The notes under the pieces are model-generated. The model was not told the origin of the DNA. It did no database searches and was given only the letters and a program-made list of their open reading frames with translations. From positions 47,549 to 111,548 of the forward strand of contig JAICXJ010000003.1 of NCBI GenBank assembly GCA_025980465.1: DNA of 64,000 nt, given 5' to 3'. The DNA comes from Frankiales bacterium (lineage in GTDB: Bacteria; Actinomycetota; Actinomycetes; JAFAQI01). This document shows positions 19,040-29,652 of this stretch, piece by piece. The position numbers and the translations under genes were made by a program. Position 1 is the first letter of the stretch; each line of letters starts with the position of its first letter.

Positions 19040-19786
19040 ATGACACAGCGTAGCAGCGTCGGCGTTCTTGACAAAGCGGTGACGGTCCTCGACTGCCTCA
19101 CCGCCGGCCCCGCCTCGCTCGCTGAGCTCGTCAGTCGAACCGGACTCTCCCGCCCGACGGCGTACCGACTTGCCGTCGCGCTGGAGGTCCATGGCCTGGT
19201 CGAGCGCGACGGCGACGGCCGGTTCGGGTTCGGACCGCGCCTGCTCGACCTCGCCGGCGCCGGCCGGGCCGATCCGCTGGAGAAGGCGGCTGGGCCGATC
19301 CTCGACAGGCTCTGCGGCCTCACCCACGAAAGCGTGCAGCTGTACCGCCGCGCAGGCTCGATGCGGCGCTGCATCGCGGCCGCCGACCGCGCCAGCGGCC
19401 TGCGCGACACAGTGCCGGTGGGTGCGCAACTCCCGATGACAGCGGGCTCGGCCGCGCAGATCCTCCTCGCCTGGGAGCCCGCCGCCGAGGTCGAAGGAAT
19501 CCTGGCCGAGGCGCGGTTCTCGGCTGCAACCCTCGCCGGGGTACGGCGCCGGGGTTGGGCGGCGAGCGTTGCCGAGCGCGAAGCCGGAGTCGCATCGGTC
19601 TCCGCGCCGGTCTTCGGCACCGACGGCCGGGTCGTCGCGGCGGTGTCGGTGTCCGGCCCGATCGACCGCTTGACCCGCTCGCCAGGAAAGCTCTTCGGCG
19701 ACGCCGTCACGGCAGCAGCGCGAGAGCTGTCCACGGCCGCCGAATATGTACCCTCGAGCGGGTTCGAACCGCCGTTACCGCCTTGA
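19040..19786 (+). CDS. IclR family transcriptional regulator (LtbR-like, divergent from leuCD)
   Basis: N-terminal HTH (LSRPTAYRLAVALEVHGLV) plus IclR effector domain. Only the 3' part of the 810-aa antisense ORF is taken, with the ATG at 19040. Confidence 0.8.
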   Translation: MTQRSSVGVLDKAVTVLDCLTAGPASLAELVSRTGLSRPTAYRLAVALEVHGLVERDGDGRFGFGPRLLDLAGAGRADPLEKAAGPILDRLCGLTHESVQLYRRAGSMRRCIAAADRASGLRDTVPVGAQLPMTAGSAAQILLAWEPAAEVEGILAEARFSAATLAGVRRRGWAASVAEREAGVASVSAPVFGTDGRVVAAVSVSGPIDRLTRSPGKLFGDAVTAAARELSTAAEYVPSSGFEPPLPP

Positions 19787-19821
19787 GAGGGCGGCGTCCT
19801 AGGCCACTAGACGACGAGGGC
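19749..19821 (-). tRNA. tRNA-Glu (anticodon CTC)
   Basis: Hand-folded cloverleaf: GCCCTCG acceptor, GTCTAGTGGCCTAGGAC D-arm, anticodon loop CTCTCAA, T-loop GGTTCGAAC. CCA is not encoded. Confidence 0.8.
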
Positions 19822-19833
19822 AAAGTGATGTCG

Positions 19834-19905
19834 CTGGGGTACCAGGACTCGAACCTAGACTAGCTGAACCAGAATCAGCCGGGCTGCCAATTACCCCATA
19901 CCCCA
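19834..19905 (-). tRNA. tRNA-Gln (anticodon CTG)
   Basis: Hand-folded: TGGGGTA/TACCCCA acceptor, anticodon stem GCTGA/TCAGC with loop TTCTGGT, T-loop GGTTCGAGTCC. Lies downstream of gltX, as in mycobacteria. Confidence 0.85.
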
Positions 19906-19939: not shown

Positions 19940-21379
19940 CTAGCCGAGCGCTGCCGCCAGTCGTTGCAATGTGCGCTCCCGCCCGAGCAGCTCGATGGAC
20001 TCGAACAACGGTGGCGAGACGGTCTTGCCGGTCACCGCAACCCGCACCGGACCGAAGGCATGCTTCGGCTTCAAGCCGAGTCCGTCGACCAGTGCGATGC
20101 GCAGCGCGGCCTCGATGTCCTCGGTGGAAAACGACTCCAAGGCGGCGACGGCCTGTTGCGCCGCGCGAAGGACCGGTTCGGCGTCGGGCCCGAGCTGCTT
20201 TTCGGCGGCCTGGGCATCGATCACGAACGCCTCGTCGCTCACCAGAAACGTCAACATCTCGGCGGCCTCACGCAGCGTCGAGACCCGCTCCTGGACCAGC
20301 GGCGCAGCGCGCGCGACGAGATCCGCTGCCGCACCCGTCACTTCCATGAACGTCGCGATCCGCACGCCGACCTCCGCCGCCGGCAGCTGGCGCAGGTAGT
20401 GGCCCGACAACCACCGCAGCTTGTCGACATCGAAGACCGGGCCGACCGGGTTCACCCTCCGCCAATCGAAGGACGCAACCATCTCCTCGAAGCTGAACAC
20501 CTCCTGCCCGTCCGGCAGCGAGTACCCCATCAGGCCGAGGAAGTTGCACAGCGCTTCGGGCAGGAAGCCCTCGTCGACGAACCAGGTCAGCCGCGCAGCC
20601 GGGTTCTTCCGTTTCGAGATCTTCGACTTGTCGGCGTTGCGCAGCAACGGCATGTGCGCGAACTCCGGCCGCTGCCAGCCGAGCCAGTCGTACAGCAGGA
20701 TGTGCTTCGGGGTGGAGGCGATCCACTCCTCACCTCGCACGACGTGGGTGATGCCCATCTCGTGGTCGTCGACCACGTTCGCGAGGTGGTAGGTGGGAAA
20801 TCCGTCGGTCTTCATCAAGACCTGGTCGTCGGGCCGGGGCGCGCTCAGCTCGCCGCGGATCAAATCGGTGAAACTCAACGCCACGTCATCCGGAATCAGC
20901 ATTCGCAGCACGGGCGTCTCGGCGAACCCGGGGAGCGCCGCCCGTTCGTCGCGAGATTTGCCCAGACACAACCGGTCGTAGCCGGTCGGCTGCTTCGCCT
21001 GCTGCTGTTCGGCGCGCATCTCGGCCAACCGCTCCGGCGTACACCAGCACTGATACGCCTTGCCCTCCGCCAGCAGCCGGTCGGCCACCGGGCGATAGGT
21101 CTCGAGCCGCTCGGACTGCCGGTACGGCGCGTAGGGCCCGCCGATGTCCGGCCCCTCGTCCCATTGCAGCCCGAGCCAGTGCAACGTGTCGTAGATCTGC
21201 TGCTCGCTGTCGGCCTGGAACCGCGCCCGGTCGGTGTCCTCGACGCGAAGAATGAACTGCCCGCCCTGCTGTCGGACGAACGCCAGGTTGAACAACGACA
21301 TGTACGCCGTGCCGACGTGCGGATCACCGGTTGGTGACGGCGCGACGCGCAGTCTGACCGGAGTCTGGCTCACCGTCAC
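19940..21379 (-). CDS. gltX: glutamate--tRNA ligase
   Basis: Class I HIGH region (PSPTGDPHVGTA) and KISKRK (KMSKS) motif. Confidence 0.9.
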   Translation of the reverse strand: MTVSQTPVRLRVAPSPTGDPHVGTAYMSLFNLAFVRQQGGQFILRVEDTDRARFQADSEQQIYDTLHWLGLQWDEGPDIGGPYAPYRQSERLETYRPVADRLLAEGKAYQCWCTPERLAEMRAEQQQAKQPTGYDRLCLGKSRDERAALPGFAETPVLRMLIPDDVALSFTDLIRGELSAPRPDDQVLMKTDGFPTYHLANVVDDHEMGITHVVRGEEWIASTPKHILLYDWLGWQRPEFAHMPLLRNADKSKISKRKNPAARLTWFVDEGFLPEALCNFLGLMGYSLPDGQEVFSFEEMVASFDWRRVNPVGPVFDVDKLRWLSGHYLRQLPAAEVGVRIATFMEVTGAAADLVARAAPLVQERVSTLREAAEMLTFLVSDEAFVIDAQAAEKQLGPDAEPVLRAAQQAVAALESFSTEDIEAALRIALVDGLGLKPKHAFGPVRVAVTGKTVSPPLFESIELLGRERTLQRLAAALG

Positions 21380-23138: not shown

Positions 23139-24722
23139 TCAGCCGACCGACTTCAGCAGCCCGAAGGTGTATGAGTCGTCGAGAGCCTGCCACGACGCCT
23201 CGATGATGTTTTCGTCGACGCCGACGGTGTCCCACTCACGCTCGCCGTTGGAGGTGCGAACCAGCACGCGCGTAACGGCGCCGGTGCCATGGGCTCCTTC
23301 GAGGATGCGCACCTTGTAGTCGACCAGCTCGAGCTTCCCGAGCTCGGGGTAGTACCGGGTCAGTGCATGCCGAAGCGCCATGTCGAGCGCGTTGACCGGG
23401 CCGTTGCCCTCACCGGCCGCGACGAGCCGGTCCTCGCCGACGAGGATCTTCACCGTTGCATTGCAGGCCATCCCGCCGCGTGAGTCGCTGTCCGCGACCA
23501 CCTGGTAGGACTCGAGGACGAACGGCCGGTAGCGCTGGCCCTCGACCTCCTCCCGCAGCATCAGCTCGAACGACGCTTCAGCTGCCTCGAAGGTGTACCC
23601 GCCCGCCTCGAGGTACTTCACCTTCTCGATCACCCGTCCGACCGCCTCCCGGTCGACCTCGATATCGAGCTCACGGGCCTTCAGCTCGATGCTGGCTCGT
23701 CCGGCCAGCTCGGACACCAACACCCGCATGTCGTTGCCGACGATCGCGGGATCGGTGTGTTGATACAGGTCCGGGTCGACCTTGAGGGCCGAGGCGTGCA
23801 GTCCAGCCTTGTGGGCGAACGCACTGGCGCCGACCCACGGTTGGTGGTCGTCGGGCGCGATGTTGGCCAGCTCCGCGATGGCGTGGCTGACCCGGACCAG
23901 CTCTGAGATTGCCCCTTCGGGCAGTACCGGCAGATCAAGTTTGAGCTCCAGGCCGGCGACGATGGAGAACAGGTCGGCGTTGCCCGCCCGCTCCCCGTAG
24001 CCGTTCGCCGTGCCTTGCACATGGGTGGCACCTGCTTGCACGGCGGCGAGTGAGTTCGCGACGGCGCACGAGGTGTCGTCGTGGGCGTGGATCCCGACCC
24101 GGGTCCCGGTGTCGCCAAGCCTCTGAACCACGTCGTTCACGACGTCAGCAAGCCGGACCGGAAGCATCCCGCCGTTGGTGTCGCACAGCGCTACCACCTC
24201 GGCTCCCGCAGCCGCGGCTGCGGTCACCACAGCGAGGGCGTAATCGCGGTCGAGGAAGTAGCCGTCGAAGAAGTGCTCGGCGTCGAGGAACACCCGCCGA
24301 CCCTCGCCGCGCAGGAACTCGATCGTGTCCCGCACCATGGCGAGGTTCTCCTCGAGCGTCGTGCGCAGCGCGCGCTCGACGTGGCCGGTGTGCGATTTGG
24401 CGACCAGCGTGACGACCGGCGTCTGCGCGTCGACGAGGGCCCGAACCTGCGGATCGTCGGCCGCGACGACCCCCGCCTTGCGGGTGGCGCCGAACGCGGC
24501 GAGCGTCGCGTGCTGCAGCGAGAGATCCCCGGCCGCGGCGCGACGGAAGAACGCCTCGTCCTTCGGGTTCGCACCGGGCCAGCCGCCCTCGATATACCCC
24601 ACGCCCAGTGAGTCGAGATGCGACGCGACCGCGAGCTTGTCCTCGACCGACAGCGACAACCCCTCACGTTGTGAGCCGTCGCGCAACGTCGTGTCGTAGA
24701 CGTGCAGATCGGTGGTGGTCAC
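23139..24722 (-). CDS. cimA: citramalate-synthase-type enzyme (short LeuA/CimA family, 527 aa)
   Basis: HMG-CoA-lyase-like TIM barrel (YDTTLRDGSQ) plus C-terminal LeuA-dimer regulatory domain. Distinct from the long actinobacterial leuA at 27931-29649. The Ile-Ile leader peptide upstream suggests an isoleucine-pathway role. Confidence 0.7.
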   Translation of the reverse strand: MTTTDLHVYDTTLRDGSQREGLSLSVEDKLAVASHLDSLGVGYIEGGWPGANPKDEAFFRRAAAGDLSLQHATLAAFGATRKAGVVAADDPQVRALVDAQTPVVTLVAKSHTGHVERALRTTLEENLAMVRDTIEFLRGEGRRVFLDAEHFFDGYFLDRDYALAVVTAAAAAGAEVVALCDTNGGMLPVRLADVVNDVVQRLGDTGTRVGIHAHDDTSCAVANSLAAVQAGATHVQGTANGYGERAGNADLFSIVAGLELKLDLPVLPEGAISELVRVSHAIAELANIAPDDHQPWVGASAFAHKAGLHASALKVDPDLYQHTDPAIVGNDMRVLVSELAGRASIELKARELDIEVDREAVGRVIEKVKYLEAGGYTFEAAEASFELMLREEVEGQRYRPFVLESYQVVADSDSRGGMACNATVKILVGEDRLVAAGEGNGPVNALDMALRHALTRYYPELGKLELVDYKVRILEGAHGTGAVTRVLVRTSNGEREWDTVGVDENIIEASWQALDDSYTFGLLKSVG

Positions 24723-24762
24723 CGGTTGGTCCTCTCGTTTCGTCGAGCGCTGTCAGCCCACA

Positions 24763-24783
24763 AAAAAACCCCCGAGCCCGGGT
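24763..24783 (-). terminator. candidate attenuator terminator upstream of cimA (short GC stem followed by U7)
   Basis: Minus-strand RNA cccg-ggcu-cggg-gg-uuuuuuu, 40 nt upstream of the cimA GTG start. Confidence 0.4.
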
Positions 24784-24817
24784 AGGGCAACGAGGGTCGC
24801 GCGTCGGCTGTTGAGCG

Positions 24818-24856
24818 TTAGCCGACGCGCCTCGAAATAATGAGCTGCGCGTTCAT
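24818..24856 (-). CDS. candidate leader peptide MNAQLIISRRVG
   Basis: 12-codon ATG ORF with consecutive Leu-Ile-Ile. Its stop lies inside an 11-bp hairpin (gcgcgtcggct...agccgacgcgc), and a U7 terminator-like element follows. Confidence 0.45.
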   Translation of the reverse strand: MNAQLIISRRVG

Positions 24857-24903
24857 CACGACACAGTCTTCGGCAGGTTGCGGCAAAAGGTCAAGTCCGA
24901 AGG

Positions 24904-25320
24904 TCATTTTCCTGCCGCAACGGGCGCCGACTCGCCCGCCCAAGCGGCCACGATGTCGCGGACTGACAGCATCCCGACGACCTCAGCGCCCTCACACACG
25001 ACGAGGTGGCGGAAGCCGCCCGAGACCATCGCCGCAGCAGCCTGCTCCAGCGACCACTCCGGCGCAGCGACGACGATGTCGCTGGTGAGATGAGCCTGGA
25101 CCTGCTCAACGTCGACGTCTTGGCCCGCTCCCACTGCGGCCAGCACGTCGCGCTCGGTGAGGATGCCCGGCTGGTTGTGCTCGGGATTAAGTACGACGAC
25201 CGCGCCGACCCGGCGCTCAGCCATCCGCTTGGCGGCTTCCCGCAGCGTGTGCGTGGGGCCGATCGTCAACACCGTGCCCGACATCGCATCGCGCACGGAC
25301 CCACCCTCGCGGACGTTCAT
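24904..25320 (-). CDS. CBS domain-containing protein
   Basis: Tandem CBS pair pattern; start taken at MNVREGG. Confidence 0.7.
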   Translation of the reverse strand: MNVREGGSVRDAMSGTVLTIGPTHTLREAAKRMAERRVGAVVVLNPEHNQPGILTERDVLAAVGAGQDVDVEQVQAHLTSDIVVAAPEWSLEQAAAAMVSGGFRHLVVCEGAEVVGMLSVRDIVAAWAGESAPVAAGK

Positions 25321-25445
25321 GGCGCCTCCCGCCAACTCACGGCCAGCCAGTCCCGACGCCTGCGATCATGGCACTTTTCTCCGCCATTCAAACGTCTGAC
25401 CGAAGGCAGGTCGGCCCGACGCGCCGCCCAGTTATCGGTGGCGGG

Positions 25446-27680: not shown

Positions 27681-29652
<1,972 letters not shown>

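Follow-up and report, generated by a model that had tools for sequence, protein, structure and literature searches.

In Actinobacteria, leader attenuators of ilvB, the LEU element of leuA and leaders of trp, cys and tRNA-synthetase genes have been described (PMC1262725, PMC8079986, PMC10272879). The attenuators of ilvB(NC), among them the ilvB-II motif of Corynebacterium, the three-hairpin model and ilvB1 of Mycobacterium tuberculosis, combine a short and often leaderless upstream open reading frame (uORF) with branched-chain codons, a hairpin that takes in the 3' end of the uORF, and behind it an intrinsic terminator (PMC10272879, PMC11857589, PMC13236596, PMC1262725). The same parts are found on the minus strand of a 64,000-nucleotide stretch of DNA from a Frankiales bacterium (NCBI GenBank assembly GCA_025980465.1, contig JAICXJ010000003.1, positions 47,549 to 111,548; hereafter the window, within which all positions are counted), upstream of cimA, the predicted gene of a 527-aa citramalate synthase. 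In contrast to the ilvB attenuators, this element would regulate cimA, and it has regulatory codons for Ile alone (II or III) where those combine Ile, Leu and Val. Comparison with homologous leaders makes it likely that the element is a ribosome-mediated transcription attenuator, which senses charged tRNA-Ile and controls cimA.

The described systems differ from the cimA leader in other respects. In C. glutamicum ilvB, the adjacent antiterminator and terminator hairpins compete at their bases (PMC11857589) and share a GCC trinucleotide, whereas the cimA helices are merely flush, with no shared nucleotide. In M. tuberculosis ilvB1, the antiterminator can form while the ribosome is stalled and is masked once the ribosome stands at the stop codon (PMC13236596); the same logic is proposed here for cimA, but the folds described there are mutually exclusive and those of cimA flush. 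The LEU element of leuA (Seliverstov et al. 2005) is likewise an amino-acid-specific leader peptide before a LeuA-family gene of Actinobacteria. Its proposed action is translational, through a pseudoknot or stem that pairs the Leu codons with the leuA Shine-Dalgarno sequence, usually with no terminator (PMC1262725), while the cimA element has a clear one. Enterobacterial leaders (trpL, ilvL/ivbL, thrL, leuL and hisL) resemble the cimA leader in their peptide rich in cognate residues, their Rho-independent terminator before biosynthetic genes and their sensing of tRNA charging. Unlike cimA, they carry the codons inside segment 1 and a 2:3 antiterminator that competes by sequence; the cimA codons lie 5-8 nt before the hairpin, 2:3 complementarity is missing, there are just two or three regulatory codons, and the mRNA is probably leaderless. 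We know of no dedicated cimA leader in the enterobacterial group. The protein itself passes the model of the Geobacter-type CimA (TIGR00977); other CimA enzymes of the pyruvate route to isoleucine are those of Leptospira and Methanocaldococcus. CimA is known to be controlled allosterically, through feedback by isoleucine (Leptospira).

A transcriptome reannotation of S. lividans lists eight leader peptides, none of them for cimA. No published leader of cimA or of another citramalate synthase gene was found in the full-text literature, a search that left subscription journals mostly outside its coverage, so that an earlier mention is possible. The comparisons support the view that an Ile-only attenuator of cimA is an addition to the actinobacterial leader-peptide attenuators, and that the flush, non-overlapping helices are a twist which it would have in common with the ilvB leader of the window.

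A preliminary description, made from the letters of the window alone, had placed an Ile-Ile mini open reading frame (mini-ORF) starting with ATG on the minus strand upstream of the 527-aa gene. The mini-ORF is there, in the frame and with the sequence described (Table 1). Its start is more likely an in-frame GTG (24859-24857) before that ATG (24856-24854), judged by the -10/GTG arrangement of homologues; the TAA occupies 24820-24818. Counted from the GTG, the mini-ORF has 13 codons and is probably leaderless or nearly so, because the GTG sits 5 nt after the -10-like AAGACT and homologues share this arrangement. Their -10 boxes read CAGACT, CACACT or CACAGT and stand 6-7 nt before the GTG or ATG of the mini-ORF at many loci, and 10 nt before it in Nonomuraea. 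The TTGACC box and a TGACCTT repeat, both pointed out earlier, are also present. The box is unconserved among homologues and counts for little as evidence. The repeat (minus strand, 24906-24900 and 24893-24887) overlaps with its first copy the stop codon of the upstream gene of a CBS-domain protein, which lies 45 nt from the leader start; it is absent from the closest relative (L001) and from other loci, and was ruled out as an operator.

The stop codon falls inside an 11-bp hairpin (A:B), as had been claimed: arm A is GCGCGTCGGCT (RNA GCGCGUCGGCU, 24830-24820), followed by a 10-nt loop (24819-24810) and arm B, AGCCGACGCGC (24809-24799), and the T of the TAA is the last base of arm A. What had been taken for a short GC stem further on is a 12-bp interrupted stem, GACCCUCG-uu-GCCC-uaccc-GGGC-u-CGGGGGUU, which abuts the first hairpin. 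The U7 run noticed before the structural gene is real and ends 39 nt before the cimA GTG (24722). A region of 186 nt around the element (24715-24900) folds with z = -2.92 relative to dinucleotide shuffles, one of 200 of which equals it. A generic scan for sigma-70 promoters and terminators gave no match at the element, its loop limit and hexamer rules being unsuited to an interrupted stem and to actinobacterial -10 boxes.

Table 1. Parts of the cimA leader, the cimA gene and the sibling leaders in the window (HMM, hidden Markov model; MFE, minimum free energy; asterisk in a peptide, stop codon)
Feature	Position	Strand	Basis and remarks
-35-like hexamer TTGACC	24894-24889	minus	sequence read; 18 nt 5' of the -10-like box
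-10-like hexamer AAGACT (actinobacterial TANNNT type)	24870-24865	minus	sequence read; 5 nt before the in-frame GTG
Leader mini-ORF GTG ATG AAC GCG CAG CTC ATT ATT TCG AGG CGC GTC GGC TAA	24859-24818	minus	peptide (V)MNAQLIISRRVG, (fM)MNAQLIISRRVG
Regulatory codons ATT ATT (Ile-Ile)	24841-24836	minus	invariant AT.AT columns in alignment A1
Spacer UCGAG, 5 nt, last Ile codon to first hairpin	24835-24831	minus	fold
Hairpin A:B, 11 bp	24830-24799	minus	MFE fold; stop codon inside
Intrinsic terminator, 12-bp interrupted stem-loop + U7	24798-24767 + 24768-24762	minus	MFE fold; abuts arm B, 0 unpaired nt
cimA, 527-aa citramalate synthase (TIGR00977 family; predicted)	23139-24722	minus	NCBIfam HMM
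ilvB leader ORF GTG CAC AGG ATT CTC GTA GTT AGC GAG CAC GTG GTC TGA	37554-37516	minus	ILVV codons
ilvB(NC) leader region	37554-37464	minus	ORF, hairpin, flush terminator; ~50 nt before the ilvB ATG (37415)
leuA leader ORF ATG CGC TCG AGC CTG CTC CTT ACC CGC CCG TAG (MRSSLLLTRP*)	29767-29735	minus	LLL codons

The comparison set comprises 80 loci with CimA relatives, one genome per species, at 63-78% CimA identity and none close to the window. They belong to Streptomyces, Kitasatospora, Nonomuraea, Actinomadura, Spirillospora, Streptosporangium, Pedococcus, Nocardioidaceae, Pseudonocardiales, Sporichthyaceae, Acidothermaceae and metagenome-assembled genomes (MAGs) of Mycobacteriales. A detector that looks for an Ile-Ile run in a short ORF bounded by in-frame start and stop codons, together with a T run no more than 190 nt away, is positive in 66 of 81 cimA upstream regions and in none of 239 controls (81 reverse complements, 80 intragenic pieces of cimA on either strand, and 78 far-upstream pieces at 1-1.5 kb on either strand). 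From 31 short-type leaders a covariance model (R1) was built; it scores 58.7 bits on the window, at 24761-24847 of the minus strand, and also matches 73 of the 80 loci, each time directly 5' of cimA. The tandem Ile codons that the preliminary description had emphasised are thus conserved before orthologous cimA genes, with a run of two or three in 55 of 61 distinct peptides. The element is real and well beyond chance.

Leader peptides of the individual lineages are VLSFAMIIGSRRAGPQ in Streptomyces, ...GLLIIGRRAG in Streptosporangiales, ...TMVIID* in Pedococcus and ...IIIS* in Nocardioidaceae. The distance from the terminator to the cimA start ranges from 20 to 290 nt across loci. It is 100-290 nt (mostly 130-190) in Streptomyces and Kitasatospora, e.g. 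2857-3000 in L024, compared to 20-90 nt elsewhere. The Streptomyces gap contains conserved blocks, such as CCGGCCCACC...GCCGG and GGTGGAGCCGGTC, gives no Rfam match, and may hold a second regulatory element.

Both helices fold in the predicted RNA structure of the leader and are supported by covariation. Across 71 distinct sequences aligned with the model, standard pairs fill 95.4% of the cells, compared to 88.2% in shuffles (none of 500 reaches the observed value) and 37-55% when the partner columns are slid; changes on both sides occur at 12 of 21 pairs. An independent run with MAFFT and RNAalifold recovered the same first helix. Its bottom five pairs, GCGCG/CGCGC, are invariant and form a clamp, and the upper pairs covary, with 13, 8, 7 and 29 double changes at four of them. 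A C-C mismatch in the middle of A:B (GCGCGC-C-GGUC / GACC-C-GCGCGC; columns 27:107 of alignment A3) is kept in 42 Streptomyces-type sequences, where other lineages have C-G or U-A. The terminator helix (helix 2 of alignment A3) is paired in 97.7% of the cells, with double changes at six pairs. Its stem has -16 to -20 kcal/mol and is followed by U4-U7 (72 sequences), and the sequence AGACCUCUCGC...GCGAGGGGUCUUUU is unusually conserved across orders.

Geometry is conserved as well. When 67 distinct leaders are folded without constraints, the MFE structures leave a spacer of 5 nt before the hairpin, counted from the last Ile codon, in 26 leaders (outside Streptomyces), of 8 nt in 27 (Streptomyces) and of 7 nt in seven (frameshifted Streptomyces, see below); in 62 of the 67 the helices are flush, no nucleotide separating them. 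The stop codon lies between -3 and +23 relative to arm A, so that a terminating ribosome always opens or occupies the clamp in that arm. In leaders of the VIID* type (AUU AUC GAC UAG|CGCGACG...) the positions of a stalled and a terminating ribosome are only 6 nt apart, and the sole structural difference between the two states is a closed versus an open clamp.

The homologous leaders point to translation. The reading frame with AUUAUY begins at a GTG or ATG, ends at a nearby stop and is open in every case. The Ile run comprises two codons in 50 of the 61 distinct peptides, three in five and one in six. Of the Ile codons in leaders, 67% are ATT; in 80 cimA coding sequences, which contain 1331 Ile codons, the share of ATT is 3.0%, and the cimA of the window has 15 ATC and no ATT. 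A rare, wobble-read ATT would suit a sensor that must respond sensitively to a hungry codon. In 25 of the 61 peptides the residue before the Ile run is Leu or Val, and in the Streptomyces leaders it is Met. Leaders in which Ile codons are not in tandem read ATG ATT ATG (L049, L072), ATG ATG/CTG ATG ATT (L067, L068), ATG ATT ACC (L037) and ATC ATG ATT (L025).

A subgroup of Streptomyces (L012, L037, L050, L059, L060, L063, L069 and L078) has a 1-nt deletion just after the Ile codons. It changes the peptide tail from IIGSRRAGPQ* to IIGSSAPVRSDR*, and the RNA arm, the Ile codons and an in-frame stop are kept. This variant indicates that the peptide tail is conserved as RNA, i.e. as arm A, and that conservation at the codon level is confined to the Ile codons. 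The frameshifted leaders lie about 250-300 nt upstream of cimA, and about 410 nt in L012.

The product of the regulated gene passes the NCBIfam equivalog model TIGR00977, named after the enzyme of Geobacter sulfurreducens, with 636.2 bits (cut-off 450). It falls below the cut-offs of all isopropylmalate synthase (IPMS) and homocitrate synthase models, the best of which are a leuA model (250 bits, cut-off 517) and nifV (177 bits, cut-off 463). The LeuA-family protein of 527 aa is therefore supported as a citramalate synthase by these models, in agreement with its earlier label as citramalate-synthase-like, its activity being predicted. No close solved structure exists for CimA, the nearest being distant IPMS and homocitrate synthases. 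The longer paralogue, leuA (27931-29649), passes TIGR00970 with 824 bits (cut-off 697) and has a Leu-Leu-Leu leader of its own, both in favour of the preliminary view that it is the true isopropylmalate synthase. Its start is probably the ATG at 29625, 10 nt after AGGAG, rather than the listed TTG at 29649; alignments to the family models begin no earlier than residue 21-22 of the long ORF.

The gene order of the minus-strand cluster is ilvD, ilvB, ilvN, ilvC and serA, further on leuA, leuB, ilvE, the gene of the CBS protein and cimA, and after cimA an aldo-keto reductase gene, the gene of a FAH-family protein, gltX, two tRNA genes, a 240-aa ORF, leuC and leuD. With leuB, leuC and leuD all inside the window, this gene content encodes every enzyme of the route from citramalate over 2-oxobutanoate to isoleucine, in which CimA, LeuCD and LeuB would make 2-oxobutanoate for isoleucine starting from pyruvate. 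A pyridoxal-phosphate motif of Ser/Thr dehydratases was found in no frame of the window, which agrees with the reported lack of ilvA, although a search with this PROSITE motif is a weak test. The proposal that the Ile codons point to isoleucine synthesis through citramalate gains support from their conservation, from the family models and from the sibling leaders.

These siblings precede ilvB and leuA in the same cluster (Table 1). The ilvB leader consists of an ORF with ILVV codons, a 14-15-bp hairpin with the stop codon, and a terminator, GCCCCUCCGCGC-UUCG-CGCGAGGGGC-UUUU, which is flush with the hairpin as in cimA. R1, the cimA model, matches it with 33.8 bits (E ~1e-7) and places Val-Val on the Ile-Ile columns, the spacer being again 5 nt. 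The leuA leader resembles the leader of the published LEU element and is followed by no U-run terminator. Three leaders with differing codon sets (ILVV, LLL and II) at three branch points are a strong argument that each senses its own product.

The cimA switch would operate as follows. When Ile-tRNA is scarce, the ribosome would wait at the ATT codons, with the hairpin 5 nt (8 nt in Streptomyces) further on and just outside the mRNA entrance, so that in this model the GCGCG/CGCGC clamp stays closed. The helicase site of the ribosome lies about 11 nt from the first P-site base, the mRNA being single-stranded up to there, and hairpins that stimulate -1 frameshifting use spacers of 5-9 nt after the A-site codon; with a 5-nt spacer, a ribosome awaiting Ile-tRNA would thus have the closed hairpin exactly at its entrance. 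The foot of a terminator needs to form deep in the exit channel of RNA polymerase, with flexible RNA 5' of it. A closed and rigid A:B joined by a linker of zero length would prevent this, stopping the lowest terminator pairs from forming inside the channel, and with the foot blocked the polymerase would read through into cimA. When Ile-tRNA is plentiful, the ribosome would reach the stop codon and unzip the clamp. Arm B would become single-stranded, the terminator would close fully, and transcription would end at the U run, i.e. at GGGGUUUUUU in the Streptomyces leader.

Hairpin A:B would act as the antiterminator: its closed form is taken for the antiterminating state because starvation must switch cimA on, and steric exclusion is proposed because A:B and the terminator share no base. 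This step would account for the invariant clamp, the flush junction and the spacer. We suggest more tentatively, and with doubts that outweigh our confidence, that the cimA and ilvB leaders represent an attenuator design in which antiterminator and terminator share no nucleotide and the block is purely steric; one or two further codons would unzip the clamp, and a codon swap 5 nt upstream (II versus ILVV) would reset the specificity.

Several observations weigh against an attenuator of this kind. Under nearest-neighbour folding, A:B and the terminator coexist under every mask, the proposed exclusion being steric and beyond secondary-structure computation. In transcripts cut before the 3' arm of the terminator, its 5' arm is paired with a probability of 0.12 when the ribosome is stalled (above 0.5 in none of 67 leaders), compared to 0.49 with the ribosome at the stop codon. 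With a codon-centred occlusion of 26 nt (PMC13236596), a ribosome at the last Ile codon already covers GCGCG, and estimates of the ribosome footprint vary by about 3 nt. In the S. coelicolor ilvB leader, mutation of candidate regulatory codons left regulation unchanged (PMC1262725). The U runs are short, only 4-7 nt. The element is missing at seven of the 80 loci, four of which (L004, L055, L058 and L061) have cimA straight after ilvE; the other three are two of Frankia type (L032, L046) and a Frankineae MAG (L041). Six of the 61 distinct peptides have a single Ile, for which either one hungry codon may suffice or the copies may be decaying.

The low pairing of the terminator arm under a stalled ribosome bears on a classical four-segment attenuator of the trp type. 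There, the stalled ribosome would cover arm A and free arm B to form an antiterminator with the terminator 5' arm, A:B being only the anti-antiterminator and pause hairpin. Such a layout is the textbook one; a generous footprint of about 11 nt past the A-site codon would cover the first 5-6 nt of arm A, and masking of this arm does yield some pairing of the terminator 5' arm (mean probability 0.49). In the E. coli trpL control the order is reversed, with 0.62 stalled and 0.24 at the stop codon. Upstream complementarity to the terminator arms is unenriched against dinucleotide shuffles (mean z -0.45 and +0.27, 1-6% of leaders below z = -2; RNAduplex, 100 shuffles), so that the 2:3 complementarity of trp-type segments is not found; the Pedococcus type alone has a copy of the terminator 5' arm in the hairpin loop (z = -3.7). 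Constraint folding keeps the terminator in the MFE structure with the ribosome at the first Ile, the last Ile or the stop. Arm A is masked no less by a ribosome that has reached the stop than by one that is stalled, and where the stop comes one or two codons after the last Ile, as in 14 distinct leaders, a trp-type mechanism could discriminate by dwell time only. With the flush junction and the invariant clamp also left unaccounted for, we regard the trp-type attenuator as unlikely.

Far less probable still is an untranslated structured RNA, i.e. a riboswitch, a protein-binding leader or a small RNA (sRNA) ending at the terminator, in which the Ile codons are incidental. Conservation downstream of these codons is of RNA rather than peptide, as this reading would have it, the terminator sequence is unusually conserved across orders, and the weak sub-threshold Rfam matches are sRNAs composed of a hairpin and a terminator. 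Nevertheless, start and stop stand in frame around AUUAUY in nearly all instances and never in controls, the ORF varies in length and sequence while frame, Ile codons and hairpin spacing persist, and the frameshifted Streptomyces variant still reaches an in-frame stop. The sibling leaders carry codons of their own pathway products, and two simple hairpins offer no space for a ligand pocket. Rfam 15 has no family at gathering score on the cimA, ilvB and leuA leaders or on six homologous loci, permissive E-values included, and yields only two tRNAs in the whole window; the best sub-threshold match on the cimA element is an unrelated sRNA (23 bits, threshold 50). A general sensor of translation stress or growth rate, which would respond to ribosome slowdown, antibiotics or (p)ppGpp and not specifically to isoleucine, is similarly improbable. 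A stall of whatever cause ahead of the clamp would act on the structure in the same way, the Ile run often follows Leu or Val (see above), and actinobacterial uORFs that sense translation stress exist, e.g. whiB7 (PMC13236596). Against it, Ile codons are the only ones kept universally and are strongly biased to the rare ATT, Streptomyces leaders carry Met instead of Leu or Val before the run, and the regulated gene is a branch-specific biosynthetic enzyme. Attenuation by charged tRNA-Ile remains the reading that we prefer.

Four further candidates were rejected. Pseudoknots between loop and terminator as in ilvB-II (AAGGAC:GUCUUU in Nonomuraea, CCUCG:CGAGG in Streptomyces), checked by eye, are not conserved across lineages. 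An extension of A:B into the terminator, as in the boundary trinucleotide model of C. glutamicum, fails with flanking bases that are unpaired in every lineage. A -1 frameshift at AUUAUUU plus hairpin is rejected since the heptamer does not permit tRNA re-pairing. A reversed logic, in which the stall leads to termination as RNA-only kinetics suggest, was discarded on physiological grounds and because starvation relieves attenuation in the related, though perhaps not identical, ilvB attenuators of C. glutamicum and M. tuberculosis (PMC11857589, PMC13236596).

If the attenuator acts as proposed, its regulation would provide independent evidence that the widespread actinobacterial LeuA paralogue of TIGR00977 serves isoleucine via pyruvate and citramalate. 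Carriers of this paralogue include Streptomyces, Nonomuraea, Pedococcus, Pseudonocardiales and many uncultured lineages, and its function has so far been assigned by homology only, as far as literature searches show. One cluster would then contain three leader peptides (ILVV, LLL and II), each tuning one branch of branched-chain synthesis. The 5-nt spacer, the GC clamp, the flush junction and the rare ATT could make the element a compact and mutable model for actinobacterial attenuators, which have been puzzling since the "paradoxical" results on S. coelicolor ilvB. It may also serve as an Ile-responsive part in Streptomyces engineering, where branched-chain precursors feed polyketides and starter units of the avermectin type, and the covariance model could be used to annotate an element absent from Rfam 15.

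Two neighbouring features of the cluster may be added. The CBS-pair protein encoded between ilvE and the cimA leader has 143 aa (24904-25335, minus strand), and its gene is also found upstream of the leader in two Mycobacteriales MAGs (L056 and L080). The two tRNA genes (19749-19821 and 19834-19905, minus strand), which are the sole matches of the window at Rfam gathering score, lie directly downstream of gltX (19940-21379).

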